Virus record (IMG/VR): IMGVR_UViG_3300023174_000090
Span: 1-64,000 of that record
Direction: 5' to 3' (one strand)
From: a virus
Length of the DNA: 64,000 nt
Below are positions 12,339-38,921 of the stretch, piece by piece; position 1 is the stretch's first letter; the number at the start of each line of letters is the position of its first letter. The position numbers and the translations under genes are program-made. Below the pieces are notes generated by a model, which worked only from the letters and a program-made list of their open reading frames with translations, did not search any database and was not told where the DNA came from.

Positions 12339-15300
12339 ATGGCGAAACCATACATAGCACCAAATCAAGTATTCAATTTAAATTTTGGAGAATATTTTTC
12401 TAATATTTTAAATTTCACGGGAACCTCACCGATAACATTTTCGGCTGTTGGGTTGCCGAGTGGTTTGGCCTTAAACACTTCTACTGGTGAATTGGTTGGA
12501 ACTCCTGTAGAGTCTGGTGTTGTATCTTCTTATATCATAGCAACAAATTCTGAAGGATCTTATGCTTCTGTTATAAAATTTAACATTAAAAAAATACCAG
12601 ATTCCAATGTATATTTTAATATTTCTCCTGTTGTTGGATATGCTAAAAATACAAAATATCAATTTACAACAAATGTGATCGAATCCTTATCTGCATATAG
12701 TGTTTTATGGGGGTTTGGAGACGGTTCTGTGTCTGATGAGATAAACCCCAAGCACACATACAATGTATCTGGTAATTATATAGTATCCTTAAATGCGTAC
12801 ACCAATACCGGAGTTGTTTTATTATCATCACAGTTAAGTGTTGGTCTATTATTAAACGAATCTGTATATTTTGATTATGTCCCCCCTCCTACCTTTGCTG
12901 GTCATTACAATAGATATCCATTCAAGTTAAATTTCACGTCTTCGGAGGAAGGTCCACATGTCATTGACTTAGCGGCACAGTATTCTAGATCATATCAATA
13001 TCAGTCTCCGAGAAATAAATGGTCTTTTCTCAGACCGGAGTGGAGATTTTTAGATTTAAATGGAAATCCAATTACAAGTATAATTCCAAATGAAACAAAA
13101 ATATATTGTAATGATTTAGGTAAATTAAATACAGATGGTTCTGGATTTGTCGCAGGAGTTACTGGAAGTGCCGAATTTTATTTTGTGGATGATATTCATA
13201 ATTTCGATTTAGCATTCGAGGGAGGTGCGTATACTACAGTAATAGCAACCCTACAAACAAGTGCGGTGCGCTCTTTTAACGATAGTTTTAATATTAGTGA
13301 TGACCTTCCTAGTTTTTCTAATAGTTTAGCAACTGTTTCTGTTCCATATATGGTTTTATTAAGACCACCGGATAATGTAAAAATAACAGAAAATGGAATT
13401 AGAGAATATATAAATCCTAGATGGAAAGAATCGATACAACCAATTGTAATAAATACTAATTTTGAAAACCCATTTCCAGAACCTTACTATTGGCAAGATT
13501 TTTCCAAAGAAATTAGCATTTATAATGAAAATAAGTCATTTTCGCATTCATTTCCACTAAGCGGTGACATGTCTTTAAATGTAGGTGTTTTAAATTTGAG
13601 TTCAACATTTACGCCGTCTGATGTGAAATTTTCTTGGCTAAATGAAGATGGATACAAATCCCCCGGATACTACAAGGGGTATTTTAAAACAAATCCTCCA
13701 TATTCATTCAAGACTCCTGTGACCTCAACTGTATCAGCACCGCTTCCAAATCTTTCGTCTCAGTATTTCAACCCAATAATTTGGGTGTCTAATCCAAATG
13801 CTGGAATGATGTGCAATTTTCAATATATAAATAACCCAGCACTGTCTGCGGCCATGAACACTCCTAACATGAACATAGCTGTCATAAAAAACTTTGAAAT
13901 GCCAGTAATAACTGAAGTAGATTTTCAAAAAGATCCGATGGCATTATCAGGATTTCATGGAATATATAGCATTGCTGCCACTACGTATCCAGCATATCAT
14001 GCATGGGCATTGGATTCTGAAATGAATAGTTTATATCGACTAACAACAAATGGAAATATATTGTGTTCCATAGATATAAATAAAATTATTTCGGATAATA
14101 ATTTAGGATTTTTAAGTGAAGATCAAACGTCTCCTGTTTCTATGGTTCTGGATAGTAAGCAAAATATATGGATAACATTGTATGATACAATATCTACAAT
14201 AAAATTAGATAGATTTGGAAATTTCTTATTTGCTACCACTCCTCTATCCAGTACTGGATATGTTTTTCCTCCTGCTCCAAATATAGATGGAAATTGGTAT
14301 GAGCAAAATACTTATTTTGATTCCGACAATTTTGCTGAATATGATTCTAATGCTTTAAATAATATAGATTTAAATTTTATAGAACCTACATGTGTCGATT
14401 CAGATTCGAATGATAATATATGGGTAACATATTCATATTTTGCTAGTGGATATATAGTAAAATATGATAAAGATGGAGCATTGTTAAATACAATTTCATA
14501 TCCCGTATGTTCTTGTCCACAACAAATTGTAGTGGATAATCAAGATAATGTTTGGATAGCACTTTCTAATAATCTCAATCCTTCTCACGAATGTATTTTA
14601 GAGAAAAGAAATTCAAATGGAGTTTTATTAAGTTCTGTAGGCGATATAAGAGGATTGAATTATTTAACATTAGATACACATCAAAATCCTTGGTTTACCT
14701 TCAGTTATAGTTGGATAGGTTCCGTTGATAATAATAACGGAACTGTATTTACTACAAATCTTTCCGGATCTAATTACACCTCAAACCCTCCCGATTGGTT
14801 TGATCCAGATAGTAATATAGATGAGACATGTTTGGAAGGAATTGGATGCGATTTAAGAGGTAGAATATATGTTGTGAATTCTCTTGAAAATCAAATTTAT
14901 ATATTAGATTCTTATACAAAAACGTTTTTGGACAAATTTTATGTAAACCCACAAGGATTTACATTTACAATAGACAATCAAGAGGGAGAAAACGGAATGA
15001 TTGCTTCTCTTTGGCAAAAGTCTCTTCAAGCGTCTGGAGATTGGACTGGATTGCGATGGATGAACAAATATGGAGTATCGGATCTTCCGTTTTTTACTAA
15101 TAATAGTTACGTTCATTCTATAAGCGGAACAACAAAACAATTACACTTTGCCGAACATGAAGATTATACTTCCTTTAAAATTAATGAAAATTTCGATTTG
15201 GCTGCAAATATGCAATCATATGCTTTCATACCATCTCTACGAGAGAGTACATTTCTATTTGAGGATTTCTTAGGCTCAATATACGGAAAATACCCATTTA

Positions 15301-15935
15301 ATAGAGATGATTTGGGAGTTTCTGTGTATGAAAAGATAGCAAATTTTGTTTCCAATCATTCTGATGTAGATTATTGTAATATAGATCAATTATATAACGT
15401 TATGAGTGAATTGGGGCTTGATGTTGATAAATTCGATTTAAATTATCCAGAAGAAATACAAAGATTAGTAAATCTTGCTAGTATAAATCAATCTAGATTA
15501 TTTGGAGCCAAATCTTTAAATGAAAATTATTTTACAAAAGTAAATAATCAAGATCAAACTAATAGGGGAGATTTGATAACTAGTTTTTGTTATACGGTAT
15601 CAGCTGGGCAAAAATTTGTGTTAAAAGACAAAACCATAAACAAATATGATTTGATTGAAACCTCGGAAATAAACGGATGTTCTGCATATTCCTTATCGGT
15701 TTTAGCTGAATTTTTAGGATTTAATTCATATGATTGGTCTTCTTACTATGAATTTTATGAATTTAATAATTCATATGACCTTAAACAATTAGAGGGTATA
15801 ATCGATTGGTCTAATCCGCAAACAACAATAAACGAAACATTATCAAGTTCTAAATATTGGTTTGGACCCGAAGGTCTTTTGGATTTAGAATTTTCGTATG
15901 AAATATATAAAGGATTAGGTTTTATTAACAAGTGA
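12339..15935 (+). CDS. Large baseplate/virion protein (gp7-position) with Ig, PKD and beta-propeller domains
   Basis: GLPSGLALNTSTGELVGTP (putative Ig), LWGFGDGS...NPKHTY..SGNY.VSL (PKD), repeated D.+.NIW blades, C-terminal IANFVSNHSDVDYCNIDQL wedge-like segment; follows gp6. Confidence 0.7.
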   Translation: MAKPYIAPNQVFNLNFGEYFSNILNFTGTSPITFSAVGLPSGLALNTSTGELVGTPVESGVVSSYIIATNSEGSYASVIKFNIKKIPDSNVYFNISPVVGYAKNTKYQFTTNVIESLSAYSVLWGFGDGSVSDEINPKHTYNVSGNYIVSLNAYTNTGVVLLSSQLSVGLLLNESVYFDYVPPPTFAGHYNRYPFKLNFTSSEEGPHVIDLAAQYSRSYQYQSPRNKWSFLRPEWRFLDLNGNPITSIIPNETKIYCNDLGKLNTDGSGFVAGVTGSAEFYFVDDIHNFDLAFEGGAYTTVIATLQTSAVRSFNDSFNISDDLPSFSNSLATVSVPYMVLLRPPDNVKITENGIREYINPRWKESIQPIVINTNFENPFPEPYYWQDFSKEISIYNENKSFSHSFPLSGDMSLNVGVLNLSSTFTPSDVKFSWLNEDGYKSPGYYKGYFKTNPPYSFKTPVTSTVSAPLPNLSSQYFNPIIWVSNPNAGMMCNFQYINNPALSAAMNTPNMNIAVIKNFEMPVITEVDFQKDPMALSGFHGIYSIAATTYPAYHAWALDSEMNSLYRLTTNGNILCSIDINKIISDNNLGFLSEDQTSPVSMVLDSKQNIWITLYDTISTIKLDRFGNFLFATTPLSSTGYVFPPAPNIDGNWYEQNTYFDSDNFAEYDSNALNNIDLNFIEPTCVDSDSNDNIWVTYSYFASGYIVKYDKDGALLNTISYPVCSCPQQIVVDNQDNVWIALSNNLNPSHECILEKRNSNGVLLSSVGDIRGLNYLTLDTHQNPWFTFSYSWIGSVDNNNGTVFTTNLSGSNYTSNPPDWFDPDSNIDETCLEGIGCDLRGRIYVVNSLENQIYILDSYTKTFLDKFYVNPQGFTFTIDNQEGENGMIASLWQKSLQASGDWTGLRWMNKYGVSDLPFFTNNSYVHSISGTTKQLHFAEHEDYTSFKINENFDLAANMQSYAFIPSLRESTFLFEDFLGSIYGKYPFNRDDLGVSVYEKIANFVSNHSDVDYCNIDQLYNVMSELGLDVDKFDLNYPEEIQRLVNLASINQSRLFGAKSLNENYFTKVNNQDQTNRGDLITSFCYTVSAGQKFVLKDKTINKYDLIETSEINGCSAYSLSVLAEFLGFNSYDWSSYYEFYEFNNSYDLKQLEGIIDWSNPQTTINETLSSSKYWFGPEGLLDLEFSYEIYKGLGFINK

Positions 15936-16791: not shown

Positions 16792-17189
16792 TTTAAATTT
16801 TTATGATATGCTTTATAGTAATTAATCCTATTTTTAGTTTTTTCTATAGCATTTAATATAGATTGTGACATGTCTACAAAATCATCATCTGCTAAAGAAT
16901 CGTTATTTTCTAATATTTTGTTTATTTGTTGTATTATGTTTAATATCTGTATATCTATAGGGTATTTTGCTTGTATGTAATTTTTTAAATCATTTTCCAA
17001 TTCTATTTCTTTTTCTGGATATCCAACATTAAATCTTATCATACCTCCAGTATCATAACTTCCTTCCCATTTCCAAAGAGACAAATCTGATTTGTCTGGA
17101 GGTGTTTCTATGGTTAATATTTGATTAGATGGAGGTATATCTTCACTATAACCTATAAATTCTTTATCTTTATTAAATAATACAAACAT
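16788..17189 (-). CDS. Hypothetical protein (possible fibre assembly chaperone)
   Basis: 133 aa, directly downstream of the gp38-like adhesin, YPIDIQ.NI motif; function inferred from context. Confidence 0.45.
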   Translation of the reverse strand: MFVLFNKDKEFIGYSEDIPPSNQILTIETPPDKSDLSLWKWEGSYDTGGMIRFNVGYPEKEIELENDLKNYIQAKYPIDIQILNIIQQINKILENNDSLADDDFVDMSQSILNAIEKTKNRINYYKAYHKNLK

Positions 17190-18799
17190 TATACAACTCC
17201 CGGACCTAATATTATACCATACTTTGTAACGGTTCCATATGATGAAATATATTGAGCATTTAAATTTGTTGTGAGAGAAAGTATAAAAGTTTTACCATTT
17301 ATCGACAATCCAGAATTTCCGCCGAATGGTGGAAGTTGTCTATTTTTATTATCTAGTTTACCACTATCGACTCCTTTTTGCCCTAAAGAGCCTCCTGCTC
17401 CTCCCGTTGCACTATTTAAACTGCTAATACCAGAACCTCCTTTACCTCCACCCTGTCCCCCACCTAAATTATTAGATGTGAATGTGCCATCTCTGCCAAC
17501 GTCTCCTCTGTATGATTTAAATACATAATTTTTAGTAGGATCTAATGGTTGAGTATTGCCTAATCCTCCTTCTCCTCCCATTCCCCCAATAATTCCAGCA
17601 CCTCCACCGCCACCGCCACCGCCGAATATGTTTTCTACGTTGAGATTTGATGTTGGAAGTAGTTTTAAGTACGAAGTATCAGAAAAGTCTGCTAATCCGC
17701 CACCGCCACCACCACCGCCACCCGCTATTACGTTGTTATTTACTATGGTAACTGGATAGTTTAAAAATATAGCATCTCCTCCGTTTTCTCCGTTGTTATC
17801 AGCTGTTAATGCTTTTCCTAAATCTTGTCCATTTCCCCCGTTTCCTCCGTAACCAACTATAAATCCATTATTAACTATTTTTACAGTATCGCTGGAAGTA
17901 AACCCAGAAACAATGAATGCTGCTATATTTTTAGAGTTGCTTCCTATTTTTATATTCGCATTTATTGTTACTTCTATGTCGCTAAATCCGGGGTAATATA
18001 ATCCGGTGTTATACACATAAGAATATAAATCAAAATTTTGAGTATCTCGTTCTATTGTTATTGTTAATTTTGATCTGCCGTCAGCGTTTCCGGTTTGAGT
18101 GGAAATTCTATTTCCTTGAGATGCGATATAAGTTGGTTGATATGTTTCATCCGTAAATCCCTTTTCGATATTTAATAAGGTCCAACCATCATTGATATTT
18201 TTAAATGTAAAATTTACACCATTTCCAAATGAAATATCCTGTTTTAAAAATTTTACATACATATTTCTAACTGAATATGATATTTCAGGAGATAGGGTAT
18301 ATGTGATTAAATCATTAGGATCTGATGGATTTACTGGTACATTATATAAAAACATACAAACTGTTATCTCATTTCCCGTATTAAAGGAATTCGCTGGATA
18401 ATTTGCGTTTAAATATTTTTTAGCTAATGTTTGTAATTTTAAATCTGGTTGATTTACAGTGGGGCAGTTTATTGATAAATCATTTAAAATAGAAATATTT
18501 ATAGGATATAAAACAGTGAATTTATTTTTATTCCAAAAAGAACTTAATAAATTTACAGTGGTATATCCTAAATTATATCTATCAACATTATAAAAATATT
18601 TTACAGTATCATTAAAATACTGTAAATTTGAATTTAATTCATTAAATTTTGTAAAAAAATTGTCATTTGATAAAAAATATTGACTGGATACATTACATAC
18701 TTCGGTGTCCAATGATAATAAATTAAAATTGTGCTTAGATGGCGAATCCCCTACACAATCAGATTCGAATATTTCTTGTGTTAATAATCTAGGTGTCAT
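17189..18799 (-). CDS. Fibre protein with C-terminal gp38-like glycine-rich adhesin
   Basis: IVNNGFIVGYGGNGGNG...GENGGDAI...IVNNNVIAGGGGGGGGG...GGGGGGGGAG...GGAGGSLG matches the T-even gp38 polyglycine layout; N-terminal domain paralogous to the next two ORFs. Confidence 0.7.
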   Translation of the reverse strand: MTPRLLTQEIFESDCVGDSPSKHNFNLLSLDTEVCNVSSQYFLSNDNFFTKFNELNSNLQYFNDTVKYFYNVDRYNLGYTTVNLLSSFWNKNKFTVLYPINISILNDLSINCPTVNQPDLKLQTLAKKYLNANYPANSFNTGNEITVCMFLYNVPVNPSDPNDLITYTLSPEISYSVRNMYVKFLKQDISFGNGVNFTFKNINDGWTLLNIEKGFTDETYQPTYIASQGNRISTQTGNADGRSKLTITIERDTQNFDLYSYVYNTGLYYPGFSDIEVTINANIKIGSNSKNIAAFIVSGFTSSDTVKIVNNGFIVGYGGNGGNGQDLGKALTADNNGENGGDAIFLNYPVTIVNNNVIAGGGGGGGGGLADFSDTSYLKLLPTSNLNVENIFGGGGGGGGAGIIGGMGGEGGLGNTQPLDPTKNYVFKSYRGDVGRDGTFTSNNLGGGQGGGKGGSGISSLNSATGGAGGSLGQKGVDSGKLDNKNRQLPPFGGNSGLSINGKTFILSLTTNLNAQYISSYGTVTKYGIILGPGVV

Positions 18800-18802
18800 A
18801 TA

Positions 18803-19750
18803 TTATATATATTTGTCTAATACCCAAATACAATTTTTAACTTTAAAAAATAAAGTTGATATCTTTTCATTTTCATATCTATCTTGAAAATCCATTTCTA
18901 TATTGGCTGATATATATGCTTCCACCGTTTTACCTAATGGTTGTATAGGAAATCCCATTTTTAATGCGGGAAATGCGTTCACAGCTTTGGTTAAAGTTTT
19001 TTTTAAAAATTTTATTGTTTTACCGATTCTACTTTTAATTGGAATTTTTGTTACTACAGGTATATTACTATAGCTATTTATATTTTGTGTTAATGGAGGT
19101 GTCAGTATTTGTGATGTACTATATGGATAAGACGGGTAAGAGCACTCTAATGTCCGTGTTTGTTGACAAGAATTTGATTGTCCGTTACAATTAAAACCTC
19201 CATTCTCACAACTTACATATCCAGAATAGTAATTTGTACACGTAATTGAAACAATTTTATTTTGTGTTTGGCAAAATGTTCTGTCTCTTATAGATTGATT
19301 TTCACTTATAGAATTTCCGTACTGCCAAATGTGTGAATATACAATAATTTGTTGATTTTCTATATAATTTAAATTGTTGTCATTTGTCTGTACTGGAAAA
19401 TTTTCATTTATCCAAGAAGATAAAGTATCTATAATTGTTTCGTTATCTATAGAATATGGAAATATTGATGGATAAAAAACTGAGATAGGTTTTATCCATC
19501 CTGCGGAATTAGTTTCAACAGTAGTACATGCACTAAATACGTTACTAGAAGCTGCTTGTATTAGAGTCGAAGTTTCTTTTAAAAATGGTCCAAATGCTTT
19601 ATAATAATCTAACATTGGATTCCAATATAGATCTATATCGTTTTTAACAGCAGTTACACAATTTTCTAATCTAAGGTAATTGATATTTACAGAACTTAGA
19701 GAATCTCCTATTGTTTCGTTTTGAAATATTTCTATCATATTACACTCCAA
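18803..19750 (-). CDS. Virion protein, paralog family with Cys-rich insert
   Basis: ETIGDSLSSVNINY..LE; WIKPISVFYP; W.NENFP; Cys-rich segment; FKVKNCIW. Confidence 0.6.
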   Translation of the reverse strand: MECNMIEIFQNETIGDSLSSVNINYLRLENCVTAVKNDIDLYWNPMLDYYKAFGPFLKETSTLIQAASSNVFSACTTVETNSAGWIKPISVFYPSIFPYSIDNETIIDTLSSWINENFPVQTNDNNLNYIENQQIIVYSHIWQYGNSISENQSIRDRTFCQTQNKIVSITCTNYYSGYVSCENGGFNCNGQSNSCQQTRTLECSYPSYPYSTSQILTPPLTQNINSYSNIPVVTKIPIKSRIGKTIKFLKKTLTKAVNAFPALKMGFPIQPLGKTVEAYISANIEMDFQDRYENEKISTLFFKVKNCIWVLDKYI

Positions 19751-20514
19751 CTATTGTTTATATTTTTAAGCTTTGCCGAAATTATTCTAGCTACATTTCT
19801 ATCGCTTCCTGCTCTATTCAGTCCTATTTGTAATAATTTACCACCAGTGCCTGTGCATGTTACGTTTGCGCTTGCGGATGACACGGTGACTCTGCAACCA
19901 TCATATGCATTTGTACACCAATGTTTTTTATTTTTTCCGCTTCCAGAAGTATGGTTACATCCTCTGTGAGGTCTGCGGCAACCGCTGCACGATAACACTA
20001 AGCCGCCGCCTGTTGGTATACACGTTTCTCTATAGCTTCTATTAAAATTAAATGTAAACGAGCCTTGTTGGCTTACATGGAAAAATACATCAACTAACTG
20101 ATTTTTATTGTAATTGGATGTGGGAAAATATATATTCATCCATGAAATTGCTTTATTTTCTATTGTTTGTTGTAAGTTTGGAGTGGTAATGCTTATCATT
20201 TCTGGATAAAATATTGTCCATTTTTTTGTCCACCGAGAACTTAAAGATGAAACTGTTGTTGCCATATCTAACCATTTCGCGCTGAATGTTTGAAAATTTG
20301 ATGACGCTACCATCCATTTAGCACTATTTTCTGAAAAACTAGTATATATTGGATACCAGTTATCTTTAAATGATGATAGATATGCAACAGAAGAATATAG
20401 TTTACTAAAATTAAAATTTATAAGATTCAAACTATTTTTTAAACATAGATTTTGATCTATTAAATAGATATTAGAACATGTAGGATTTATTTTTTTAAAA
20501 CTTATCATAGCCAA
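19735..20514 (-). CDS. Virion protein, paralog family with Cys-rich insert
   Basis: CLKNSLNLINFNFSKL; WTKKWTIFYP; WMNIYFP; Cys/His/Arg-rich segment; LKNINNSW. Confidence 0.6.
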   Translation of the reverse strand: MAMISFKKINPTCSNIYLIDQNLCLKNSLNLINFNFSKLYSSVAYLSSFKDNWYPIYTSFSENSAKWMVASSNFQTFSAKWLDMATTVSSLSSRWTKKWTIFYPEMISITTPNLQQTIENKAISWMNIYFPTSNYNKNQLVDVFFHVSQQGSFTFNFNRSYRETCIPTGGGLVLSCSGCRRPHRGCNHTSGSGKNKKHWCTNAYDGCRVTVSSASANVTCTGTGGKLLQIGLNRAGSDRNVARIISAKLKNINNSWSVI

Positions 20515-23500
20515 TTTATTTTATATAATGAAGATTCTGCGGGTGTTAATTTTTTAATATTATTTTTAATAGACTCCTCTATTAAAAATTTTAAATCATC
20601 TTTTATATTTAGGTTATGTATATTAATATTAAAGTATTTGCTCTTGTTTCCGGGTAATTGATTTTTATACCAATATTGAATTTCTTCTATGTAGTTCCTA
20701 TCACCAACTAAAACATTCCAAGAAAGATCTTCTCTGTTACTCGAAAATTCCGAAGAAAAATATAACTGTTCTGTTTCTCCGATAGTTAGCGATTTTGAAT
20801 ATATTCTTAAATCTGATATACTTCCTATAAATTTATTTGTATTGTCTATTCCTATAATATCATTTAATGTTGTGTTCTTTATAGTAGCAGCACCTAATAA
20901 TAAAGAAGATCTATATTCATAATTCAACTGATATTTTCCAGAATCAAAATATGCCGAATCCACTTCTATGGAATCTATAAAATATTTTGCATAACCTTGT
21001 GTCGAATCAAATGTAAAAGTAAACATGTGCCAACCAATCGGAAGAGATTCCGAGTTATAATTTAAAGAGAACAATTGAGGTGTTTTTCCATTCGGCTCTG
21101 ATATCTTAAATTTCCATGACACATTTTTTATTGCGGCTCCGTATTTTCTTAAAAATTGATATCCAGTAAAATCTCCTTTTGCGTAGAATTTGAAATCGGA
21201 AGTATTTTTATCGAGCAATGCTCTTAGATCTAATTTCGATAATAAATTTCCAACTTCATCTATTAAATACGCTTCATTGTCCCTATTATCTATTAATATT
21301 AATACGTCATTATAAAATGTATTTTTATTACATCTATTATTATCTAATGGAATTCTTATAAAATTTAAAAATCTAAATGTATTCTGTGAAAAGCATAGGT
21401 TTAAAGGAGATCCCGAATTCTTTCCTATTCTGAATGAAAACTCAAAAATTCCCTTTTCGGTATTTAATTTAGATATGCGATCCTGTTCGTGTGATATCCA
21501 AATATTATTTTTAGAATCGCATGATATTTGTTGTACAAATCCTACATTAGCATATACTTGTCTGTTTTTATATAAATTGCCTCCGACTGCCTCCCATATG
21601 TTATTATTTCCATCTATTATGGAAGAGTTTCCATAAATTTCAATAACATTATTATTGCTATCTAATTGTATTCCATTTACACTCGAATCTGTGATTATAT
21701 GTGTGGATTGAATGCTTCCATTCTGATCAATAATAACATATTTTTTAAGACTATTATCATATAGATACATGTTCTGATTGGAATCCATTTCAAGTTGATC
21801 GATTGTATCTAATGATAGATATCCGGACGGTATTGTGTATACTAAATTGTTTATCGAATCGTATTTATGACCTATAATATTATTAGAATCAAATATCCAA
21901 TAGTTATAATCGGGGGTTCTTTGTATGAAAGAGAAGTTAGAATTATAAATTCCATTTAATGGATTTTGAGAAAGTTTGTTAAATTTATAATTAAAATTAT
22001 ACGAAATTGATGATGTTTGATTTACTATTGTTACTAAAGGAGAAGATAAAAATCCTTCATTAATCAAACCAAACCCGCTGTCATAATAGTTTCCAAAAAT
22101 TTGATCACCGGATATATTACCCCAGTCATCTACATTAACCCACATGGAAACTGTAAATTTATTTTTTTGTAGAAGTGATGTTTTTGATGGAAAAACTACA
22201 TGGTTATTACCGTTTAACGTAATATAATTCCCTTTAAAGGTATTATCATCAGAAAAAAATGCCAATCCGTTATTTTTATGTAAAGAATCGTCTAGAATAG
22301 GAGAGGATAGCCAGTTTGTAATTGTTAATACATTAGCACCTTTAGGATCGTTTATATCATAATTCAAATATTTTAAAAACTCTTTACTTCCGTTTATTCC
22401 ATAACGGGAATATGTGTACAATGCTCCCGGTTCCATGTACATTGTAGATGGTGTATCAAATGTTAATGGTTCGTTTGCTGATAATTTTGGGTGATATAAC
22501 AAGCTTTTTGCTGTTAATGCTTCATCGAGTGTATAAAATGCTGAATTGTAATATCTATCCAACCATATTTTATCTCCTAGATTTGTTCCCGAAAGCCAAG
22601 AACATAACCAAGTATTATCAAATTTTGTAATCGACAATGGCTGTGGAGCGTCTGGAATTAGTTCTTCGTAGTTTGTTTTATATAAATATATCCTATCAGA
22701 TGCATACGGCACTTCTCCTGCTACTGCACCGTCTTCTATCAATCCACATGAACTTAATGGAATTCTTGAAGATGTTGCTGGAAAATAAAATTTCGTATCT
22801 TGATCTACTTTAAAATCTATTTTTTTAGTATTTGCATGGAATCCTAAGAATATTTTATCATATCCTTTATTCTGATTCGTTCCTGTGAATATTTTATTAT
22901 ATACTCGTCTTATTGATGGAGAATCTGAAAATTTTGGATTTGAAGTAGAATATTCATATTCCGGAGTTTGATAGTTTTTTAATCCATGAATTTGAAAATC
23001 ATAAGCACAATCACTTTCATTCACAGTGGGATTTTCTACAGGATACATTCCCAAGTAATTTTGAGAGCATAGATTTTCATCAGAAAACTCTTTGTTTATT
23101 TCTAATTTATTTTCCGAGTATATTGGATTTGTTTTGTATTTCACTAAAAAACTATTAGAAACGCTATCCAAAAATTCCTCATCATTATATCTATACGAAC
23201 CTAATTTAAAAAATGAGTTTAATGGTAAATTTTGATTTTCAGTTAATGATATAGAACTTAACATTAAAATGTTTGAACTGTTTATTAATGCTATTTTATT
23301 ATATAAATTATCATATTTAAATATGTATATATTGTTGCGTTCTAGTATATAATTAAATTTTTGATTGTTTATATATGGCAATATTTGTTTACTAAAAATT
23401 AGTTTATCACTTGAAATTGTTAATACATTTCCTATTTTATTTTTTATTATTATAAAATCATCTTCAAAGAATAACGTTAATACATCAGAAGAATCTGCCG

Positions 23501-23873
23501 ATACTCTATCACTTTTTATTAAAATATTCGGATTATTTGGAATTGCAGAATTTGCATTAAATATTGATAGATAATACCCATCTAAAGTTTTTATGGGAGA
23601 TTCTATTTTTTCTAATTTTTCTACATCTTTGGGGTTTTCTTTATTAGTTACAAAATATGAATTATAAAACATGGAAGTAAGAAATGTTCCAGTTTTTTTA
23701 TTAAATGTAAAATCTGTAGAATTTTTTAAAAAATTATGCAAATAAAAAAACATTCCATTATTACATAATATGGATTGTTTTTTTGTAGAAAATTGATCTC
23801 CTATGATATTAAAATCTATAGGCTTCCAATATGTAGAACATAAATTATTAAATATACTAAACGTTGATGCCAT
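20505..23873 (-). CDS. Large virion protein with LamG (ConA-like) domain and inserted beta-propeller
   Basis: LNGNNHV...FTVSMWVNVDDW (LamG start); GWHMFTFTFD...YFID...FIGSISDLRIYSKSL...ETEQLY (LamG end); D.NNN.W blades between them. Confidence 0.7.
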   Translation of the reverse strand: MASTFSIFNNLCSTYWKPIDFNIIGDQFSTKKQSILCNNGMFFYLHNFLKNSTDFTFNKKTGTFLTSMFYNSYFVTNKENPKDVEKLEKIESPIKTLDGYYLSIFNANSAIPNNPNILIKSDRVSADSSDVLTLFFEDDFIIIKNKIGNVLTISSDKLIFSKQILPYINNQKFNYILERNNIYIFKYDNLYNKIALINSSNILMLSSISLTENQNLPLNSFFKLGSYRYNDEEFLDSVSNSFLVKYKTNPIYSENKLEINKEFSDENLCSQNYLGMYPVENPTVNESDCAYDFQIHGLKNYQTPEYEYSTSNPKFSDSPSIRRVYNKIFTGTNQNKGYDKIFLGFHANTKKIDFKVDQDTKFYFPATSSRIPLSSCGLIEDGAVAGEVPYASDRIYLYKTNYEELIPDAPQPLSITKFDNTWLCSWLSGTNLGDKIWLDRYYNSAFYTLDEALTAKSLLYHPKLSANEPLTFDTPSTMYMEPGALYTYSRYGINGSKEFLKYLNYDINDPKGANVLTITNWLSSPILDDSLHKNNGLAFFSDDNTFKGNYITLNGNNHVVFPSKTSLLQKNKFTVSMWVNVDDWGNISGDQIFGNYYDSGFGLINEGFLSSPLVTIVNQTSSISYNFNYKFNKLSQNPLNGIYNSNFSFIQRTPDYNYWIFDSNNIIGHKYDSINNLVYTIPSGYLSLDTIDQLEMDSNQNMYLYDNSLKKYVIIDQNGSIQSTHIITDSSVNGIQLDSNNNVIEIYGNSSIIDGNNNIWEAVGGNLYKNRQVYANVGFVQQISCDSKNNIWISHEQDRISKLNTEKGIFEFSFRIGKNSGSPLNLCFSQNTFRFLNFIRIPLDNNRCNKNTFYNDVLILIDNRDNEAYLIDEVGNLLSKLDLRALLDKNTSDFKFYAKGDFTGYQFLRKYGAAIKNVSWKFKISEPNGKTPQLFSLNYNSESLPIGWHMFTFTFDSTQGYAKYFIDSIEVDSAYFDSGKYQLNYEYRSSLLLGAATIKNTTLNDIIGIDNTNKFIGSISDLRIYSKSLTIGETEQLYFSSEFSSNREDLSWNVLVGDRNYIEEIQYWYKNQLPGNKSKYFNINIHNLNIKDDLKFLIEESIKNNIKKLTPAESSLYKINWL

Positions 23874-23903: not shown

Positions 23904-24410
23904 CTACACTATTTCAACTTTAATTCCAGATATACAAGGTTTTTGAGTTTGAACAAATCCCCTCCAAGAACTTACGGAATAGCTGTAGCTATCTCTAGAG
24001 AGTTGTCCATATCCAGCTTCGTTTTGAATTAAAATATCAAAATATGTGGTATATCCAATTGATTTTGTTTGTAAATGATATATAAGAGCGTCTGGAATAT
24101 CTAATACCATAAATTTCTCATCGGGAACATCGAATTGTGATATTAAAGATGCGTCAAATGACGGATTTAACGCAGAAAGATTTTTAATTGCTGAAAATGG
24201 ATTATAATACGAAAAATTTAAATTCTGTAAAATACTTGTATCTGAACTGCTTAAAAAAACATTTTGTATTTGATAAAAACTTTTACCAGTTATTACGATT
24301 TGTTTTTCCTGTTTTGCTGATAATATGGGATTTACTATATACAGATTGTAAGGGAATACATCGGTAGCACTTGGTTTTGCGTATACAATAATTCTTGAAT
24401 CGTAGCTCAT
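23904..24410 (-). CDS. Hypothetical virion protein (Ig/IPT-like)
   Basis: IVITGKSF...DILIQNEAGY pattern; sits in the structural operon downstream of gp15. Confidence 0.5.
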   Translation of the reverse strand: MSYDSRIIVYAKPSATDVFPYNLYIVNPILSAKQEKQIVITGKSFYQIQNVFLSSSDTSILQNLNFSYYNPFSAIKNLSALNPSFDASLISQFDVPDEKFMVLDIPDALIYHLQTKSIGYTTYFDILIQNEAGYGQLSRDSYSYSVSSWRGFVQTQKPCISGIKVEIV

Positions 24411-28139: not shown

Positions 28140-28556
28140 TTATTTATTAATGTAATTAAAATCTGCAAGTAGTTTTTTATATTCCAAGATTTCTCTATTA
28201 GAAATTTCTAAATGTATATGCATATTATCATCAGTATGTAATACGTCATCTATATTATTAAAGTTTTCATTTTTAGGGGCAACGTTTTTTTGTTTTTGAA
28301 TGTATTTAATATTTCTAGTGTTTTGAGGTATTATCTTTTTCAATAATCTCAAATTATCATACTTCAGAGAACATAATCCTTTTTTTGTTAGCCACCTATT
28401 TGTTGTTAGGTTGAGTATATTTGCAGATATACCATCAACCATGGAAACCCACCTATTAATAATAAATTGAGAAGGAAGATCAGGCTCCTCAATTTCTAAT
28501 ACACCTTTCTTTTTAAGAACAAAGTCTAAATTTTTAAAAAAATTATCGGATTGCAT
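28140..28556 (-). CDS. gp62: Clamp loader small subunit, T4 gp62-like
   Basis: FKNLDFVLKKK...SQFIINRWVSM...YD.L...KYIQK...EISNREILEY resembles gp62. Confidence 0.6.
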   Translation of the reverse strand: MQSDNFFKNLDFVLKKKGVLEIEEPDLPSQFIINRWVSMVDGISANILNLTTNRWLTKKGLCSLKYDNLRLLKKIIPQNTRNIKYIQKQKNVAPKNENFNNIDDVLHTDDNMHIHLEISNREILEYKKLLADFNYINK

Positions 28557-29217
28557 ATTTTTGCTTGAATTTTATAGAACTGTTAAACCATTCAGGAGAA
28601 TTCATACTATTTCCTAATCCGAAATGTGTCACTTTAATGGGATAAACTCCTATTTTAAGTTTATTTTGATTGGCAGTCAAGCAAAAAGAAATATCATAAT
28701 GATGGAATTCAAAATCCTCATCAAATTTTGTATTTGTTTCTAAAAGACGATTTACATTAACTCCTATAAATAAACCATCGATCAATAATGCTCTTGATGG
28801 CGTTTTTCCAAATGGTGTTGTCCAAAATAATTTATCATGTGAATGACAAACCTCCCCTACAAAATTATTTCTAGGAGACATTAAGTGCCAAGCGGACATT
28901 TCACTGTTAACATCGCAAGATTTTGTTCCCGCAAGTCCTACGATATCATATTTTTCAAATGCGGAGCACAATTTCTCTTTAAAAAACAAATCTTCTATTA
29001 TCACATCATCATGTACAAATACTAAAAATGTATCCTTATTACTTTCGCTTATGAATTGATTATAAATTTTCGGAAGTCCTTGTTTATTTTCATAAACAAT
29101 ATGCGAATCTGAAAATTTTAATAACTTATCAAGGGTTAAACATATTTTTGATTTTTCTTTAAATTCTTTTTCGTTATATGGAGTTGCAATTACAAATTTG
29201 TATTTAAAATTATTCAT
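28543..29217 (-). CDS. GT-A glycosyltransferase (Glyco_tranf_2_5-like)
   Basis: GLPKIYN...VFVHDDV, IVGLAG, LIDGLFIGV, FDEDFEFHHYDISFCL. Confidence 0.8.
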   Translation of the reverse strand: MNNFKYKFVIATPYNEKEFKEKSKICLTLDKLLKFSDSHIVYENKQGLPKIYNQFISESNKDTFLVFVHDDVIIEDLFFKEKLCSAFEKYDIVGLAGTKSCDVNSEMSAWHLMSPRNNFVGEVCHSHDKLFWTTPFGKTPSRALLIDGLFIGVNVNRLLETNTKFDEDFEFHHYDISFCLTANQNKLKIGVYPIKVTHFGLGNSMNSPEWFNSSIKFKQKYAIR

Positions 29218-32635: not shown

Positions 32636-32637
32636 AA

Positions 32638-32901: not shown

Positions 32902-32925
32902 ACTTAAATTTAAAAATCAAATATT

Positions 32926-33273: not shown

Positions 33274-33320
33274 TTAAATATTATTTACCCTAACCTTGAG
33301 GTAAATATAGATATTAATAT

Positions 33321-36300
33321 ATGGCTTCAAAGAAAATTAGTCAATTACCATTAAACACTTCAAGTTTACCAACAAGTGCTGTTATAATAACAAATATAGG
33401 AGGTGTTACGTACCAATCTCCTCTTTCTGCATTAGTAGATCCTTCCCCCTATAAATTTTCTAATACAAATAGTAATGCAATTATTCCAAAATTAGGAAAT
33501 AATACTTCTTCTGGATATTATTCAAATGTTTCTGGTGGTAGTTATAATATTGCTTCTGGAAATTGTTCAAATGTAAATGGTGGTAGTTTTAATACTGCTT
33601 GTAAGGGTTTTTCAAATGTAGCAGGAGGTTATTGCAATACTGCTTCTGGATATTATTCGAATGTAGCTGGTGGCATGAATAATACTGCGTCCGGAGATTA
33701 CTCTAGTGTTTCTAATGGTCTTGAAAATATTTCTTCTGCAAATTATTCAAATATAGTTGGTGGTGTTTTAAATACTGCTTCTGCATATGCTTCAAACATT
33801 GCTGGGGGTTGGGGGAATAACGCCTCAAACGATTATTCAAACGTTGCTGGTGGCAGGTCTAATACTGCTTCTGCATGTTATTCAAACGTAGCTGGGGGTT
33901 ATATTAATACTGCTTCTGGATGTTATTCAAACGTTGCTGGAGGACGTAATAATACTGCTTCTAATTATATTTCGAATGTTGCGGGTGGTGGTTATAATAC
34001 TGCTTCTGGATATTATTCAAATATTACTGGTGGTTATGGTAATACTGCTTCTGGATATTCTTCAACTATTGCGGGTGGTTTTTGTAATACTGCTTCTGGT
34101 CGTTATTCTTCAATTTTAGGCGGACGTAACAACAATACCAACAACCAATGCAATACGTTTATTTTAGGTTCTAATATAACAGCAAATGCACAAGATACTA
34201 CATATGTAAATAATTTATTTGCTACTAATAATATTGTAATTCAAGGTTCTTTGAGTGCTGCTGGAGGTGCGACATTTGCAGATACTGTTTTTACAACCAC
34301 TAGCGCATTAAGTGTTGTTAATTTAGGTGTTGGTCCTGCTTTATATGTATATCAAGCATCTGGTCCGTATGATGTTGCTTCATTTGTTGATGGAGACGGT
34401 ATAGAAGTTTTACACGTTGGTAATGCAAATTTTGGTCAAACCGGAAAAATTGGTATAAATCAAAGTTTTCCTAATAAAGAATTAACAGTTACTGGAGAAA
34501 TCAGTGCAACTGGAATTATTTATGCTTTAAGCGGAAATAGTTCTAGTTGGAATTCTGTTTATAATTCAGTTTTATCAAATTCTGCTAATAATGCTTCTAT
34601 AAATTATGTAAATTCCAATTATCTTCCATTAACCGGAGGAACTATAATAGGTGAGGTTAATGTTCTATCGGGATTGAACGCGGGTTATGGAAATTTAACA
34701 CTAGAAATAAATGAAAATAGTGTTTCTGTATATGGCCCGTTAAGTTCTAACAATACAATTTATGATTCTGTTGGAAATTCAACAGAATGGAATTCTGTTT
34801 ATACTACAGTATATAATACTTCGGCTGATTGGGATTCTACATATACAAATCAAACAAATTATTTACCATTAAGCGGTGGAACAATAACAGGTGACGTTAC
34901 TATTTTATCTGGTTTAGAAGTTGGGTATGGAAATTTAACACTAGAAATAAATGAAAATAGTGTTTCTGTATATGTACCGTTAAGTTCTAACAATGCAATT
35001 TACGATTCTGTTGGAAATTCAAATCAATGGAATTCTGTTTATACTTCTGTTCTAAATACGTCTGCTAGTAATGCTTCTATAAATTATGTTAATTCTAATT
35101 ATCTTCCATTAACCGGAGGAACAATAACAGGTCCGGTTGAAATAAATGCATCAGAGGTTGATAATGTATTAAAATTAAAAGGAAAGTATGGCGGTTATTT
35201 AGACATAGTATTAACCGATGAGTCTTTTACAGCTGGATATCCTGCTCCGGTTGGATCTATTGGATCATCCGGTGAGGGATTTTCTGTAAAATATGGAGTA
35301 GGAGATACTCAATGGGGTAAGGTTGTTTATAGTACTAATTTTGACGAGGGCGATGAAGCTACTATTAAAAATCTAAAACTAGAAAAATTAAAAGATGGTA
35401 ATAACAATTTTGTTTTAGATACGACTGGTGGGTTTAATGTTTATAATACTGCTAATTCAAATAAAGCTATAGAAATTGTTGATAATCAACTTTTATATAA
35501 TGTTTCTAATGAAGTAGTATTAGATTTTACAGATAAATTTTATATTAAAAAAAACACAAGAATAGATGCAGATGTTACTATTTTTGGAAACCTTACATCA
35601 ACTGGCACTCAAACATTTGCAAATACTATATTCTCGACAACAAGTTCATTAAGTGTTTATCATGTTGGAACCGGACCAGCATTATGGGTCGGTAACTATG
35701 GAACTGGTGATATTGCTTCCTTTTATGACTTAGATAAAAATATAGAAATTCTTCATGTCGGAGGAAATGATGGAATATTTCCTAATGTTGGTGTTAAAAC
35801 ATCTTATCCTAATAAAGATTTTACAGTTAACGGAGAAATTAGTGCTTCTGGTGATATATGGACATCTGGAAGAATTATTTCTGATATTATCGAAACAGGA
35901 TCAGGAAGTATTACACTCTTTGTTTCTTCTGGGCTTGTTGGTATTAATACAGAACTTCCAAATAAATCTCTTACAGTTAACGGAGAAATTAGTGCTTCTG
36001 GTGATATATGGACATCTGGAAGAATTATTTCTGATATTATCGAAACAGGATCAGGGAGTATTACACTCTTTGTTTCTTCTGGGCTTGTTGGTATTAATAC
36101 AGAACTTCCAAATAAATCTCTAACAGTTAACGGAGAAATTAGTGCTTCTGGAATTATTTATGCCTTAAGTGGAAATAGTTCTAATTGGAATTCTGTTTAT
36201 TCATCATGGGAAACTGCATCTGCAACTTCTATTGTTTCTTACAATGATACTAGATTTTCAAAACTTTCTAGCCAAGCATATAAATTAACATATCCTAGGC

Positions 36301-37310
36301 TTTCGATAAGTCCTATAAATGGAAATAATACTGCTTCTGGATATTATTCAAATGTAAATGGTGGTTATGGTAATAATGTACTTGGAGATTATTCAAGCAT
36401 AGGTGGCGGTATTTGTAATAATGCGTCTGGATATGTTTCGACAATTTCTGGTGGTAGAAGTAATACTGCTTCTGGATGCAAATCAACAGTAAGTGGTGGT
36501 TATTGTAATAGTTCTTGTGGATATAGTTCAACAGTTTCTGGTGGTTGTTGTAATACTGCTTTTGGATATGCTTCTAATGTTTCTGGTGGTATATCTAATA
36601 CTGCTTCTAACTATAATTCAAATGTTTCTGGTGGTAGAAGTAATACTGCTTCTGGATGTATATCAACAGTAAGTGGTGGTTGTGGTAATAGTTCTTGCGG
36701 ATATAGTTCAACAGTTTCCGGTGGTTGTTTCAATACTGCTTCTGGATGTGCTTCGAATGTTTCGGGTGGTATAGATAATACTGCTTGTGGCGATTATTCA
36801 AACGTTACTGGGGGTCGTTTCAATACGGTTTCTGGGGCGTATTCACACGTTGCTGGAGGTCGTGATAATATTGCTTCTGGAGATTATTCTGCGATATTGG
36901 GTGGTAGCTGTAATGATACCAACAATAAATCTAATACTTTTACTTTAGGTTCTAGTATAACAGCATCACAACCAAATTATACATACGTAAACAATTTATC
37001 TTCACAGAATAATATTAATGCTACTGTTATAAGCTCTATGGGTGGAAATTCAAATCAATGGAATTCTGCTTACTCAAACCAAACAAATTTTCTTCCATTG
37101 AGTGGTGGAATAATATCAGCAAACTCTTCTACAAACGCATTAACCGTTGTTGGTAATATATCTGCAACACAAAATTATTTTTCTGGAAGCAATAAATCAG
37201 TATTTACACCACAAACAAATACAGTCGGTATTAGTGCAATAAGTAATATTGTTGCTGTATCGGTTTTACCCGCAACACCAAATCCTTCAACACTATATAT
37301 TATTATATAA
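33321..37310 (+). CDS. Long modular tail fibre / adhesin
   Basis: MASKKISQLP start; two blocks of 14-aa NTASGxYSxVxGG repeats; YLPLSGG and GINT..PNK.LTVNGEISA fibre modules; C-terminal PNPSTLYII. Confidence 0.8.
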   Translation: MASKKISQLPLNTSSLPTSAVIITNIGGVTYQSPLSALVDPSPYKFSNTNSNAIIPKLGNNTSSGYYSNVSGGSYNIASGNCSNVNGGSFNTACKGFSNVAGGYCNTASGYYSNVAGGMNNTASGDYSSVSNGLENISSANYSNIVGGVLNTASAYASNIAGGWGNNASNDYSNVAGGRSNTASACYSNVAGGYINTASGCYSNVAGGRNNTASNYISNVAGGGYNTASGYYSNITGGYGNTASGYSSTIAGGFCNTASGRYSSILGGRNNNTNNQCNTFILGSNITANAQDTTYVNNLFATNNIVIQGSLSAAGGATFADTVFTTTSALSVVNLGVGPALYVYQASGPYDVASFVDGDGIEVLHVGNANFGQTGKIGINQSFPNKELTVTGEISATGIIYALSGNSSSWNSVYNSVLSNSANNASINYVNSNYLPLTGGTIIGEVNVLSGLNAGYGNLTLEINENSVSVYGPLSSNNTIYDSVGNSTEWNSVYTTVYNTSADWDSTYTNQTNYLPLSGGTITGDVTILSGLEVGYGNLTLEINENSVSVYVPLSSNNAIYDSVGNSNQWNSVYTSVLNTSASNASINYVNSNYLPLTGGTITGPVEINASEVDNVLKLKGKYGGYLDIVLTDESFTAGYPAPVGSIGSSGEGFSVKYGVGDTQWGKVVYSTNFDEGDEATIKNLKLEKLKDGNNNFVLDTTGGFNVYNTANSNKAIEIVDNQLLYNVSNEVVLDFTDKFYIKKNTRIDADVTIFGNLTSTGTQTFANTIFSTTSSLSVYHVGTGPALWVGNYGTGDIASFYDLDKNIEILHVGGNDGIFPNVGVKTSYPNKDFTVNGEISASGDIWTSGRIISDIIETGSGSITLFVSSGLVGINTELPNKSLTVNGEISASGDIWTSGRIISDIIETGSGSITLFVSSGLVGINTELPNKSLTVNGEISASGIIYALSGNSSNWNSVYSSWETASATSIVSYNDTRFSKLSSQAYKLTYPRLSISPINGNNTASGYYSNVNGGYGNNVLGDYSSIGGGICNNASGYVSTISGGRSNTASGCKSTVSGGYCNSSCGYSSTVSGGCCNTAFGYASNVSGGISNTASNYNSNVSGGRSNTASGCISTVSGGCGNSSCGYSSTVSGGCFNTASGCASNVSGGIDNTACGDYSNVTGGRFNTVSGAYSHVAGGRDNIASGDYSAILGGSCNDTNNKSNTFTLGSSITASQPNYTYVNNLSSQNNINATVISSMGGNSNQWNSAYSNQTNFLPLSGGIISANSSTNALTVVGNISATQNYFSGSNKSVFTPQTNTVGISAISNIVAVSVLPATPNPSTLYIII
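33498..34140 (+). repeat. About 15 x 42-bp (14-aa) beta-roll repeats
   Basis: Recurrent aatactgcttctggatattattcaaatgt...ggtggt units. Confidence 0.85.
35821..36151 (+). repeat. Near-perfect 150-bp tandem duplication (about 2.2 copies)
   Basis: ttacagttaacggagaaattagtgcttctgg... starts at 35821, 35971 and 36121; only 1-2 synonymous differences seen. Confidence 0.9.
36324..36920 (+). repeat. Second block of about 14 x 42-bp repeats
   Basis: NTASGxxSxVSGG units, Cys-rich variants. Confidence 0.85.
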
Positions 37311-37312
37311 AT

Positions 37313-37555: not shown

Positions 37556-37559
37556 TTTT

Positions 37560-38921
37560 ATGGCAAACACTTCCATTACAATTTATCCTCAATATAATAG
37601 CAATCAGGTAACAAATATTAATTGCGGAACTAGTTCTCCTAGAATTGGTGGAACAATTGATATTTCGTCTTTTCCAAATTTAAATAGTTTTACTTGTGAT
37701 TCTAATGATATAACTTCTTTTAAAGGATTTGCTAACTGCCCGAACTTAACAAACGTTAGTCTTACCCTAAATAAAATTACAGGAAATTTTAATGATATAT
37801 TTCCAAATTTTAACAATAGATTAAATATGGTGAGTTTTGGCGTACGGTCAAACCTAATGACAGGAACAATTCCAAGTTTAAGTGGATTGAGTAATTTGCG
37901 AGTTTTTAGTTGCAATGAAAATCAACTTACAGGACTCATTCCTAGCTTGAGTGGTTTGACTAATTTTCGAGTTTTTGGTTGCAACTCAAATCAACTCACA
38001 GGAACAATTCCAAGTTTAAGTGGATTAATTAATTTGCAAGAGTTTCGTTGCTACTCAAATCAACTCACAGGAACAATTCCAAGTTTAAGTGGTTTGACTA
38101 ATTTGCGAGAGTTTAGTTGCAATGAAAATCAACTCACAGGAACACTTCCAAGTTTAAGTGGCTTGACTAATTTGCGAGTTTTTAATTACAATGAAAATCA
38201 ACTCACAGGAACAATTCCAAGTTTAAGTGGTTTGACTAATTTGCGAGAGTTTCGTTGCTACTCAAATCAACTCACGGGACCCATCCCCAGCTTGAGTGGC
38301 TTGACTAATTTGCAATATTTTTATTGCAACTCAAATCAACTCACAGGAACAATTCCAAGTTTAAGTGGATTAATTAATTTGCAAGAGTTTCGTTGCAGCT
38401 CAAATCAACTTACAGGCTTTGCTGGTGGTTCAGTTTCTAATACTCTTAGCAATTTTCAGGCACAAAATAACCAACTAACCCAAAGTGCTGTTGATACCAT
38501 CTTATCAACATTTAATGCAACAACAAGAACCACGGGAACAAGAGTTTTAAATTTAGGTGGTGCAGGCAACAGTGCTCCAAGTTATACGGGAGGAGTTACT
38601 ACAACGTCTCTTGGATTTAATTTTTCTAGAACAGGAACTCTTGTAACAGCAAATGTAAATAATCATGGACATACAAATGGAAACCTTGTAACAATTACGG
38701 AAATACCACAAACAGATTTTCAAGGAACATTTACCATAACAGTAACTGGACCAAATCAATTCCGATACACAACGGTAACATCCGGATCTATTACAGGAAC
38801 AGGAACAGCCACTATGAGAAGAACGACCAATGCTAATGATGGATTTAGATCATATCAAAACCTTGCCCTCGTTACAAGACTAGGAGGATTTCCTTGGAAC
38901 GTAAATATTAACTTCCCATAA
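37560..38921 (+). CDS. Leucine-rich-repeat virion/receptor-binding protein
   Basis: Eight plant-type 23-aa LRRs (NQLTGTIPSLSGLTNLxxFxCxx) flanked by degenerate LRRs; QSAVDTIL cap; C-terminal VTANVNNHGHTNGNLVTI...GTFTIT...NQFRY beta domain common in phage tail proteins. Confidence 0.85.
   Translation: MANTSITIYPQYNSNQVTNINCGTSSPRIGGTIDISSFPNLNSFTCDSNDITSFKGFANCPNLTNVSLTLNKITGNFNDIFPNFNNRLNMVSFGVRSNLMTGTIPSLSGLSNLRVFSCNENQLTGLIPSLSGLTNFRVFGCNSNQLTGTIPSLSGLINLQEFRCYSNQLTGTIPSLSGLTNLREFSCNENQLTGTLPSLSGLTNLRVFNYNENQLTGTIPSLSGLTNLREFRCYSNQLTGPIPSLSGLTNLQYFYCNSNQLTGTIPSLSGLINLQEFRCSSNQLTGFAGGSVSNTLSNFQAQNNQLTQSAVDTILSTFNATTRTTGTRVLNLGGAGNSAPSYTGGVTTTSLGFNFSRTGTLVTANVNNHGHTNGNLVTITEIPQTDFQGTFTITVTGPNQFRYTTVTSGSITGTGTATMRRTTNANDGFRSYQNLALVTRLGGFPWNVNINFP
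37860..38415 (+). repeat. 8 x 69-bp tandem LRR-coding units
   Basis: Units start at 37860, 37929, 37998, 38067, 38136, 38205, 38274 and 38343 with high nucleotide identity. Confidence 0.92.

Follow-up and report, generated by a model that had tools for sequence, protein, structure and literature searches.

The window analysed here comprises the first 64 kb of a 111,556-bp virus record (IMGVR_UViG_3300023174_000090; 31% GC), and the element under study is a short serine-centred motif, [LIVF]-S-[AGS], that recurs in a group of its virion proteins. The source virus is a divergent T4-like myophage. Its recognised T4-like genes are those for the gp23 capsid protein, the prohead protease, a gp6-like wedge protein, a gp15-like sheath stabiliser, the clamp loader, a gp47-like phosphoesterase and a Dda-like helicase. 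The DNA polymerase displays only ~30% identity to cyanophage and pelagiphage polymerases, and megablast of phage records yielded no near relative among deposited phage genomes. A search of IMG/VR with the gp6-like protein returned more than 100 related contigs. According to CheckV, the whole record is a linear fragment of ~53% completeness; as complete relatives measure 195-226 kb, genes that appear to be missing here may simply sit off the contig.

An earlier sequence-only reading had singled out eight proteins of the window as rich in the motif, with the copies counted by eye. To put these counts on a firmer footing, a non-overlapping gene set was called and the copies in each protein were compared with composition-preserving shuffles of that protein (Table 1). 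The by-eye counts turned out to be exact (17, 11, 6, 34 and 9 copies, with 5, 4 and 6 in the paralogues starting at 17189, 18803 and 19735), and so did the claimed near-absence elsewhere, with no copy in the DNA polymerase, the gp6-like protein or gp23 and one in gp46 (FSGG). The isolated copies were also located (NPSLSAS, GGSLSG, FPALSG and FSGG, with one copy in a 55-residue open reading frame). Taken together, the eight proteins hold 92 copies of [LIVF]-S-[AGS] against 39.7 expected (2.3-fold), which bears out the proposed enrichment over shuffled sequences, whereas the 130 other genes of the record hold 137 against 119 (1.15-fold). For the narrower motif L-S-[AGS] the difference becomes larger: 45 copies against 11.4 in the eight proteins (3.9-fold) and 47 against 36.8 in the rest of the genome (1.28-fold).

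Table 1. Motif-bearing proteins and glycan-related genes of the record. Copies are those of [LIVF]-S-[AGS], observed versus expected from shuffles, unless L-S-[AGS] is named; AF2, AlphaFold; aa, amino acids; GT, glycosyltransferase.
Feature	Position	Strand	Description	Copies
gp7-like baseplate protein	12339..15935	+	1198 aa; Ig-like He_PIG/PKD domains, NHL-type propeller, helical C-terminus (Pfam, AF2 model)	17 vs 7.3; L-S-[AGS] 11 vs 2.2, P=2e-5
Tail-fibre protein	17189..18799	-	PHROG tail fibre and Pfam GP38 (E=1e-8)	5 vs 3.0
Fibre-module protein	18803..19750	-	315 aa, no family match	4 vs 1.4
Fibre-module protein	19735..20514	-	259 aa, no family match	6 vs 1.9, P=0.003
Large outer protein	20505..23873	-	1122 aa, LamG/ConA-like domain (Pfam Laminin_G_3)	11 vs 5.8; L-S-[AGS] 6 vs 1.9
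168-aa protein	23904..24410	-	Family without a name; densest load	6 vs 1.5, P<0.001 in all shuffles
GT-A glycosyltransferase	28543..29217	-	Pfam Glyco_tranf_2_5, E=5e-12	
Fibre protein	33321..37310	+	1329 aa; UspA1/YadA-type head at residues 1000-1227	34 vs 15.5
LRR protein	37560..38921	+	453 aa; Pfam LRR_4, E=6e-28	9 vs 2.9
Sulfotransferase	39301..40119	-	Sulfotransfer_3/_1 matches; adjoins the fibre and LRR genes	
GT9-like transferase	40123..41052	-	309 aa, 6 Cys; no Pfam match	
Glycan-building block	46276..52474	+	Between gp47 and gp46; Pfam and NCBIfam matches; GT2/GT7 genes at 46276..51168	
GT-B (group-1/GT4-like)	54306..55607	+	Between gp46 and DNA polymerase; Atlas neighbours named 'glycosyl transferases group 1'	
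gp5-like hub (outside window)	68500..69750		OB domain and lysozyme-like SLT part	L-S-[AGS] 5 vs 1.1
704-aa 'virion structural protein' (outside window)	92258..94372		Among the top L-S-[AGS] carriers	

The gp7-like protein, whose gene lies directly downstream of the gp6-like gene here and likewise in relatives, is the main non-repetitive carrier of the motif. The three genes of the fibre module behave alike when their orthologue groups are considered, with L-S-[AGS] at 3.1-fold (17189..18799), 4.3-fold (18803..19750) and 3.5-fold (19735..20514) of expectation, and the homologues of the 168-residue protein again rank among the top scorers in relatives. A segment of the 17189..18799 fibre protein matches the T2-type gp38 adhesin family. 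When the proteins of the entire record are ranked by their L-S-[AGS] excess, the first seven are the gp7-like, LRR, 704-residue virion structural, fibre, gp5-like hub, 168-residue and LamG proteins; no replication or nucleotide-metabolism enzyme scores in this genome-wide ranking. Enrichment of the gp5-like hub indicates that the tag is not confined to peripheral proteins. The sequence-only reading had the motif mark outer virion proteins in general; this holds roughly for the tail end, whereas the lattice proteins of this phage are unmarked, with counts of zero for both gp23 and the gp6-like wedge.

Several controls bear on the question of whether such an excess might arise by chance. The [LIVF]-S-[AGS] excess is unchanged when residues are shuffled only inside blocks of 40, 20 or 10 residues, which rules out patchy local composition. 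At an equal expectation, the mirror motif [AGS]-S-[LIVF] displays no excess in the window proteins, and the tripeptide count lies 1.5-fold above the prediction from its two dipeptide counts. Among ~3,000 patterns of the class-X-class form, [LIVF]-S-[AGS] comes first, with or without the two repeat-containing proteins. The use of Leu and Ser codons at motif sites equals the background elsewhere in these genes, and the nine-base words that encode the motif are diverse. The signal therefore sits in the protein and not in the DNA, and a DNA-level cause can be ruled out.

Two of the carriers do owe part of their load to internal repeats. In the LRR protein, IPSLSGLTNL occurs once per 23-residue unit and accounts for eight of the nine copies; L-S-G and L-T-x are part of LRR consensus sequences. 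The copies that had been reported for every unit are thus present, and eight of them belong to the repeat scaffold and are not independent. Residues 1000-1227 of the fibre form a trimeric adhesin head of the UspA1/YadA type (3pr7, E=8e-23) built of xS[TN]VSGGxxN repeats, nine of which lie at residues 1042-1170, almost all inside the 3pr7 match. Further duplications in the fibre comprise four copies of VNGEISASG and two of ITLFVSSG. The LSG copies of the LRR and the VSGG copies of the UspA1-type head are scaffold elements and need not belong to the tag. The other motif-bearing proteins are not visibly repetitive and retain the full excess: with the fibre and LRR proteins removed, 25 copies of L-S-[AGS] remain against 6.3 expected (4.0-fold).

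A residue matrix around Ser in 120 outer proteins of relatives allows for a sharper definition of the motif. LSA is enriched 4.7-fold, LSG 3.5-fold and LSS 3.4-fold, followed by V-S-A (2.6-fold) and V-S-G (2.1-fold); I-S-x and F-S-x stay at 1.0-1.5-fold in the same 120 proteins. Of the originally claimed [LIVF]-S-[AGS], the Leu core and a weaker V-S-[AG] thus stand, and Ile and Phe at position -1 drop out. Of the Thr-centred versions, L-T-A alone is elevated (2.1-fold), with L-T-G/S at ~1.0-1.1-fold. Weak wider preferences are common to unrelated families, namely Thr at -6, Pro, Ala or Ser at -2 and a hydrophobic residue at +2; charged residues are scarce near the motif, and acidic residues are depleted around it. 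Known sequons were considered as the identity of the motif and ruled out for lack of enrichment. For the Bacteroidota motif D-(S/T)-(A/I/L/V/M/T), the window has 19 copies where 14.9 are expected, and the relatives have 179 where 182 are expected (0.98-1.27-fold), and in window and relatives alike N-x-S/T stays at 0.85-0.95-fold and the PglB motif D/E-x-N-x-S/T at 0.48-0.64-fold. The GAG-type S-G-x-G reaches 0.54-fold in the window and 1.08-fold in relatives, and [DE]-x-S-G 0.27-fold and 1.34-fold, respectively.

Extension of the counts to related viruses offers a view of how widely the motif is kept. We collected ~75 metagenomic loci, each comprising no fewer than 1,500 outer-protein residues, with gp6 identities down to 35%. 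All of them display an L-S-[AGS] excess, ranging from 1.8- to 6.6-fold, and the second set of these loci totals 694 copies against 180 expected. The gp7-like family holds 368 against 85 (4.3-fold), compared with 81 against 56 for the neighbouring gp6 family. Large downstream proteins of relatives that are dissimilar to every window protein and lack a Pfam domain are also enriched; a Pfam scan of six large motif-rich proteins from relatives gave no match, and outside the window most structural genes matched nothing in PHROGs. Four relatives were read from end to end as far as assembled (G001, G003, G004 and G005). In each of them, the same protein classes lead the ranking by L-S-[AGS], with the remaining genes at 0.8-1.14-fold in the three where this was computed.

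The motif also emerges from a scan that presupposes no pattern. Among 4,226 tripeptides in 64 outer-protein representatives (clustered at 40% identity), LSA, LSS and LSG are the third to fifth most over-represented, and VSA, VSG and VSS rank behind them. Only the linker words TPT (5.8-fold) and PTP (5.5-fold) outrank LSA in these non-redundant proteins of relatives (loci L001-L146); in other systems, linkers of Thr and Pro are classic sites of O-glycosylation.

Different results were obtained for T4-like phages outside this group. We compared the gp7-like and structural proteins of five outgroup phages, together with the LamG protein of one of them, Xanthomonas phage X1. L-S-[AGS] occurs at 8 against 8.3 expected in T4 (0.96), 9 against 8.8 in P-RSM4 (1.02), 14 against 10.8 in HTVC008M (1.30), 9 against 7.6 in S-CRM01 (1.18) and 4 against 8.4 in X1 (0.47). 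The pooled outer proteins of the five hold 44 copies against 43.9 expected, at a similar Ser content. The excess is hence a property of the clade and not general to fibre and baseplate proteins, an explanation that these outgroups rule out.

An alignment of 27 gp7-like orthologues gives a greater level of detail about how individual sites come and go. L-S-[AGS] occupies 62 distinct alignment columns, 32 of them singletons, compared with 14-40 columns for controls of similar expectation, and the mirror motif is not enriched in the alignment. Inherited positions therefore do not explain the excess; the earlier statement that shared ancestry does not account for the motif is borne out as far as positions are concerned. 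Once present, sites are retained to an unusual extent. At 55-70% identity, 65% of L-S-[AGS] sites are kept, compared with 5-28% for matched controls (I-S-[AGS] 11%, the mirror motif 14%, L-T-[AGS] 5%, L-N-[AGS] 17%), and at 38-55% identity the values are 22% and 2-6%, respectively. The flanks of the motif are below average in conservation (0.355 vs 0.456) and more gapped (median 0.34 vs 0.10). Where the Ser is replaced, this is most often by Thr (26%, vs 14% for other serines), indicating that the hydroxyl is what is kept.

The AlphaFold (AF2) model of the gp7-like protein (pLDDT 76) consists of Ig-like domains, a six-bladed NHL-type propeller and a helical C-terminal part, and fold matches are to NHL and Ig structures. 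Its eleven L-S-[AGS] sites are found in loops before strands (117, 407 and 536), a hairpin turn (420), short helices (472 and 502), strands (162 and 764), loops after strands (636 and 808) and a low-confidence segment (1168). Being kept amid variable surroundings, arising at many new positions and favouring no single structural setting, the motif behaves as a tag and not as an element of the fold.

Besides the motif-bearing proteins, the record encodes a large set of glycan-related genes, which take up more than 8 kb of its 111.6 kb. The block between gp47 and gp46 contains a GT2-like gene, a GT2, a GT2+GT7 fusion, a small GT2, a double GT-A, a 225-residue unassigned gene and an FkbM methyltransferase. 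It occupies the same position in all four relatives read over their assembled length, including G004, which lacks a PF00535 match and has the block by BLAST. At corresponding places, as for the sulfotransferase, the same four relatives carry homologues of the GT-A protein at 28543 (57-72% identity) and of the GT-B protein at 54306 (63-72% identity), the latter being devoid of any Pfam or NCBIfam match. In G004, the GT-B is 63% identical, compared with 49% for the DNA polymerase, 45% for gp46 and 50% for gp47. The sulfotransferase is found in four of the four relatives and the GT9-like gene in three; the usual substrates of sulfotransferases in these Pfam families are glycans or small molecules. 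The GT9-like 40123 protein matches TIGR02201 (heptosyltransferase III) weakly (E=0.004 over 40 residues), and its Atlas neighbour clusters carry PF01075 on 26-32% of their members, at a TM of 0.78.

In the five outgroup phages no homologue of the GT2+GT7 fusion was found, and only S-CRM01 has a clear GT2 domain. Within the clade, GT presence and enrichment offer no contrast, every relative being enriched and all four contigs that were read carrying the GT set. No other conserved group of enzymes that lacks an assigned target comes close to the GTs in size. No thymidylate-synthase-family hydroxymethylase was found in the clade, including two records that are at least 92% complete, which weakly argues against DNA glycosylation as the use of the GTs. 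Among ~60 proteins scanned with Pfam, PHROGs or NCBIfam, we recognised no kinase, acyltransferase or dedicated chaperone.

Some genes of the window stand apart from both sets. Right after the capsid gene, 6125..7573 encodes a 482-residue protein with a DUF7487, an MTES_1575-type nuclease domain and a Mom-family domain; a homologue occurs in only one of 80 related loci, and the gene may be a DNA-modification or homing-type insertion. A protein with a TnsA-like endonuclease domain is encoded at 2081..2545 in the head gene cluster, between a 295-residue gene without assignment and the prohead protease, and a SegE-like GIY-YIG endonuclease lies away from that cluster at 42058..42498. Both are probably mobile homing-type genes.

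That L-S-[AGS] is a selected, clade-specific and virion-restricted tag at 3-4 times chance is well established by computation. What the tag is for can be stated less firmly. It occurs in proteins of the baseplate periphery, the fibres and the hub, and in some further virion proteins, throughout a broad uncultured T4-like clade, where it is inherited together with the GT set. We tentatively propose that its serines are putative O-glycosylation acceptors for the phage's own GTs, a reading that ranks first among those considered and that we hold to be a serious possibility rather than a probable outcome. Modification of the tag as such, its glycan nature and the identity of the initiating enzyme are all inferred. 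The most likely reader would be a cytoplasmic phage GT that transfers the first sugar onto the Ser hydroxyl of newly made structural proteins, with the GT9-like 40123 protein and the GT4-like 54306 protein as candidate initiators. The GT-A block, the FkbM methyltransferase and the sulfotransferase(s) might then extend and decorate the glycan, which the distal tail would carry. A fuller scheme, in which a large aquatic T4-like clade encodes sequon-directed protein glycosylation, with a cytoplasmic GT reading the tag, a polymerase-like GT2+GT7 protein extending the chain, methylation and sulfation following and a proteoglycan-like coat forming on baseplate and fibres, is conceivable and, in our view, rather doubtful as a whole.

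The same observations could be explained in other ways. L-S-small might be a local structural device that requires no modification, for instance a hydroxyl-capped turn or strand end beside a buried Leu, of which the beta-rich outer proteins of this clade would happen to make heavy use. Exchange of Ser and Thr at conserved positions, hydrophobic residues kept at -1 and enriched at +2, the membership of L-S-G in the LRR unit and of V-S-G-G in the UspA1/YadA head repeat, and the location of several sites at strand starts or ends in the AF2 model would all agree with such a role. Weighing against this role, comparable proteins of the five outgroups have no excess (44 vs 43.9). The sites moreover span many secondary-structure contexts and domain types and fall in the least conserved, most indel-rich stretches, and neither Ile and Phe at -1, which are good beta-strand residues, nor the mirror motif is enriched. 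We regard this explanation as possible and somewhat doubtful. Less likely still is a different reader, which might place a phosphate, an acyl group or a sulfate on the Ser, or be an assembly chaperone or partner that recognises P-x-L-S-small. The evidence for selection does not itself identify the reader, the sulfotransferase is kept in all four relatives, and many genes lack an assignment. On the other side stand the failure to recognise a kinase, acyltransferase or dedicated chaperone in the ~60 scanned proteins, the prominence of the GTs as a conserved set without a target and the fact that sulfotransferases of such families are mostly glycan or small-molecule enzymes.

An artefact might also be suspected, whether from composition, from repeats within proteins, from inheritance of positions or from choosing the motif post hoc: repeats inflate the counts of the fibre and LRR proteins, Ser, Gly and Ala are abundant in the carriers, and both motif and proteins had been chosen by eye. 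This explanation has been largely refuted by the shuffle, repeat-removal, scan and outgroup controls, and we consider it very improbable. The excess stays at 4.0-fold without the two repeat proteins, survives shuffles in blocks of 10 to 40 residues and exceeds the dipeptide expectation 1.5-fold. The motif tops the unbiased scans in the window and ranks third to fifth in non-redundant relatives; in one family it falls into 62 distinct columns with 32 singletons, and outgroups of similar Ser content show nothing.

Glycosylation of the tag also has several points weighing against it. The major capsid protein of the window phage lacks any copy, and any coat would accordingly cover the tail end only; the glycan coat on exposed parts of the particle that had been proposed was overstated, the gp6-like wedge having no copy either. 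For a residue next to an exposed acceptor, Leu at -1 is unusual. Family matches link none of the GTs to a known protein glycosyltransferase, with only weak evidence for the GT9-like assignment (E=0.004), and the GTs could build a host-surface or other glycan instead. The link between GTs and motif is a weak one, being a single phylogenetic contrast between a clade with both and five outgroups with neither. In the gp7-like alignment, some conserved sites within strands or at their ends exchange Ser and Thr in a manner that looks structural (L-[ST]-G at 537; I-[ST]-G at 929; V-[ST]-A at 1088), indicating that the motif population is probably mixed. Finally, relatedness among the orthologues inflates the significance values obtained on such sets, and it is the effect sizes that should be taken as evidence.

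To our knowledge, virion glycosylation of tailed phages has been documented so far only in mycobacteriophages, and we know of no defined sequon for it. According to the account given in PMC12619734, mycobacteriophage GTs have been proposed to glycosylate the phages' own structural proteins (Freeman et al. 2023, as cited there), with glycans at the C-termini of capsid and tail-tube subunits. The present phage likewise encodes GTs, of which the GT-A at 28543, the block and the GT-B are conserved in four relatives. In contrast to the mycobacteriophage type, the motif is a tripeptide dispersed over baseplate, fibre and hub, with no copy in the capsid protein. The phages also differ: those studied here are metagenomic T4-like myophages, and their set of GTs is much larger.

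The closest working precedent is bacterial. In the TibC/TibA and Aah/AIDA-I systems, enzymes of a GT-B heptosyltransferase lineage modify many Ser sites on a repetitive, beta-rich adhesin. TibC heptosylates Ser, and not Thr, in the cytoplasm, in the contexts QNSGG and NTSAA of a beta-helix adhesin (PMC4358343). Similarly, the phage motif is centred on Ser and followed by a small residue (L-S-[AGS] 3.4-4.7-fold, L-T-G/S ~1.0-1.1-fold), a likeness of motif only, and the GT9-like gene, itself a weak assignment, lies beside a fibre with S[TN]VSGG head repeats. There are clear differences as well. The phage motif prefers Leu at -1, where TibC sites have Asn or Thr, and is spread over many unrelated domains instead of one beta-helix; the GT9-like protein has 309 residues compared with ~406 for TibC; and the GT9-like gene is missing in G003, yet G003 is enriched. 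The Bacteroidota, N-x-S/T and PglB sequons resemble the proposed tag in that a brief acceptor sequence would be over-represented in surface proteins, although the enzymes that use these bacterial sequons act outside the cytoplasm and phage particles assemble inside. The consensus sequences of LRR and YadA/UspA1 heads, with L-S-G per LRR unit and V-S-G-G per head repeat, are parts of known solenoid scaffolds. They account for the repeat-borne copies only, and the 4-fold excess of the gp7-like, LamG, hub and small proteins, which are not repetitive, lies outside their reach.

These results point at a short, sharply defined Ser motif under selection at the receptor-binding end of the virion, across a large and abundant uncultured T4-like group. 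Even without glycosylation, a 3-4-fold, clade-wide and selected tripeptide in variable loops needs explaining. If its serines are indeed glycosylated, the GT islands of aquatic phages would gain a concrete target, and modified sites would become predictable from sequence alone. Glycans on tail fibres could alter the interpretation of host range and adsorption, and a proteoglycan-like coat, if it forms, may affect host recognition, stability or escape from defences.

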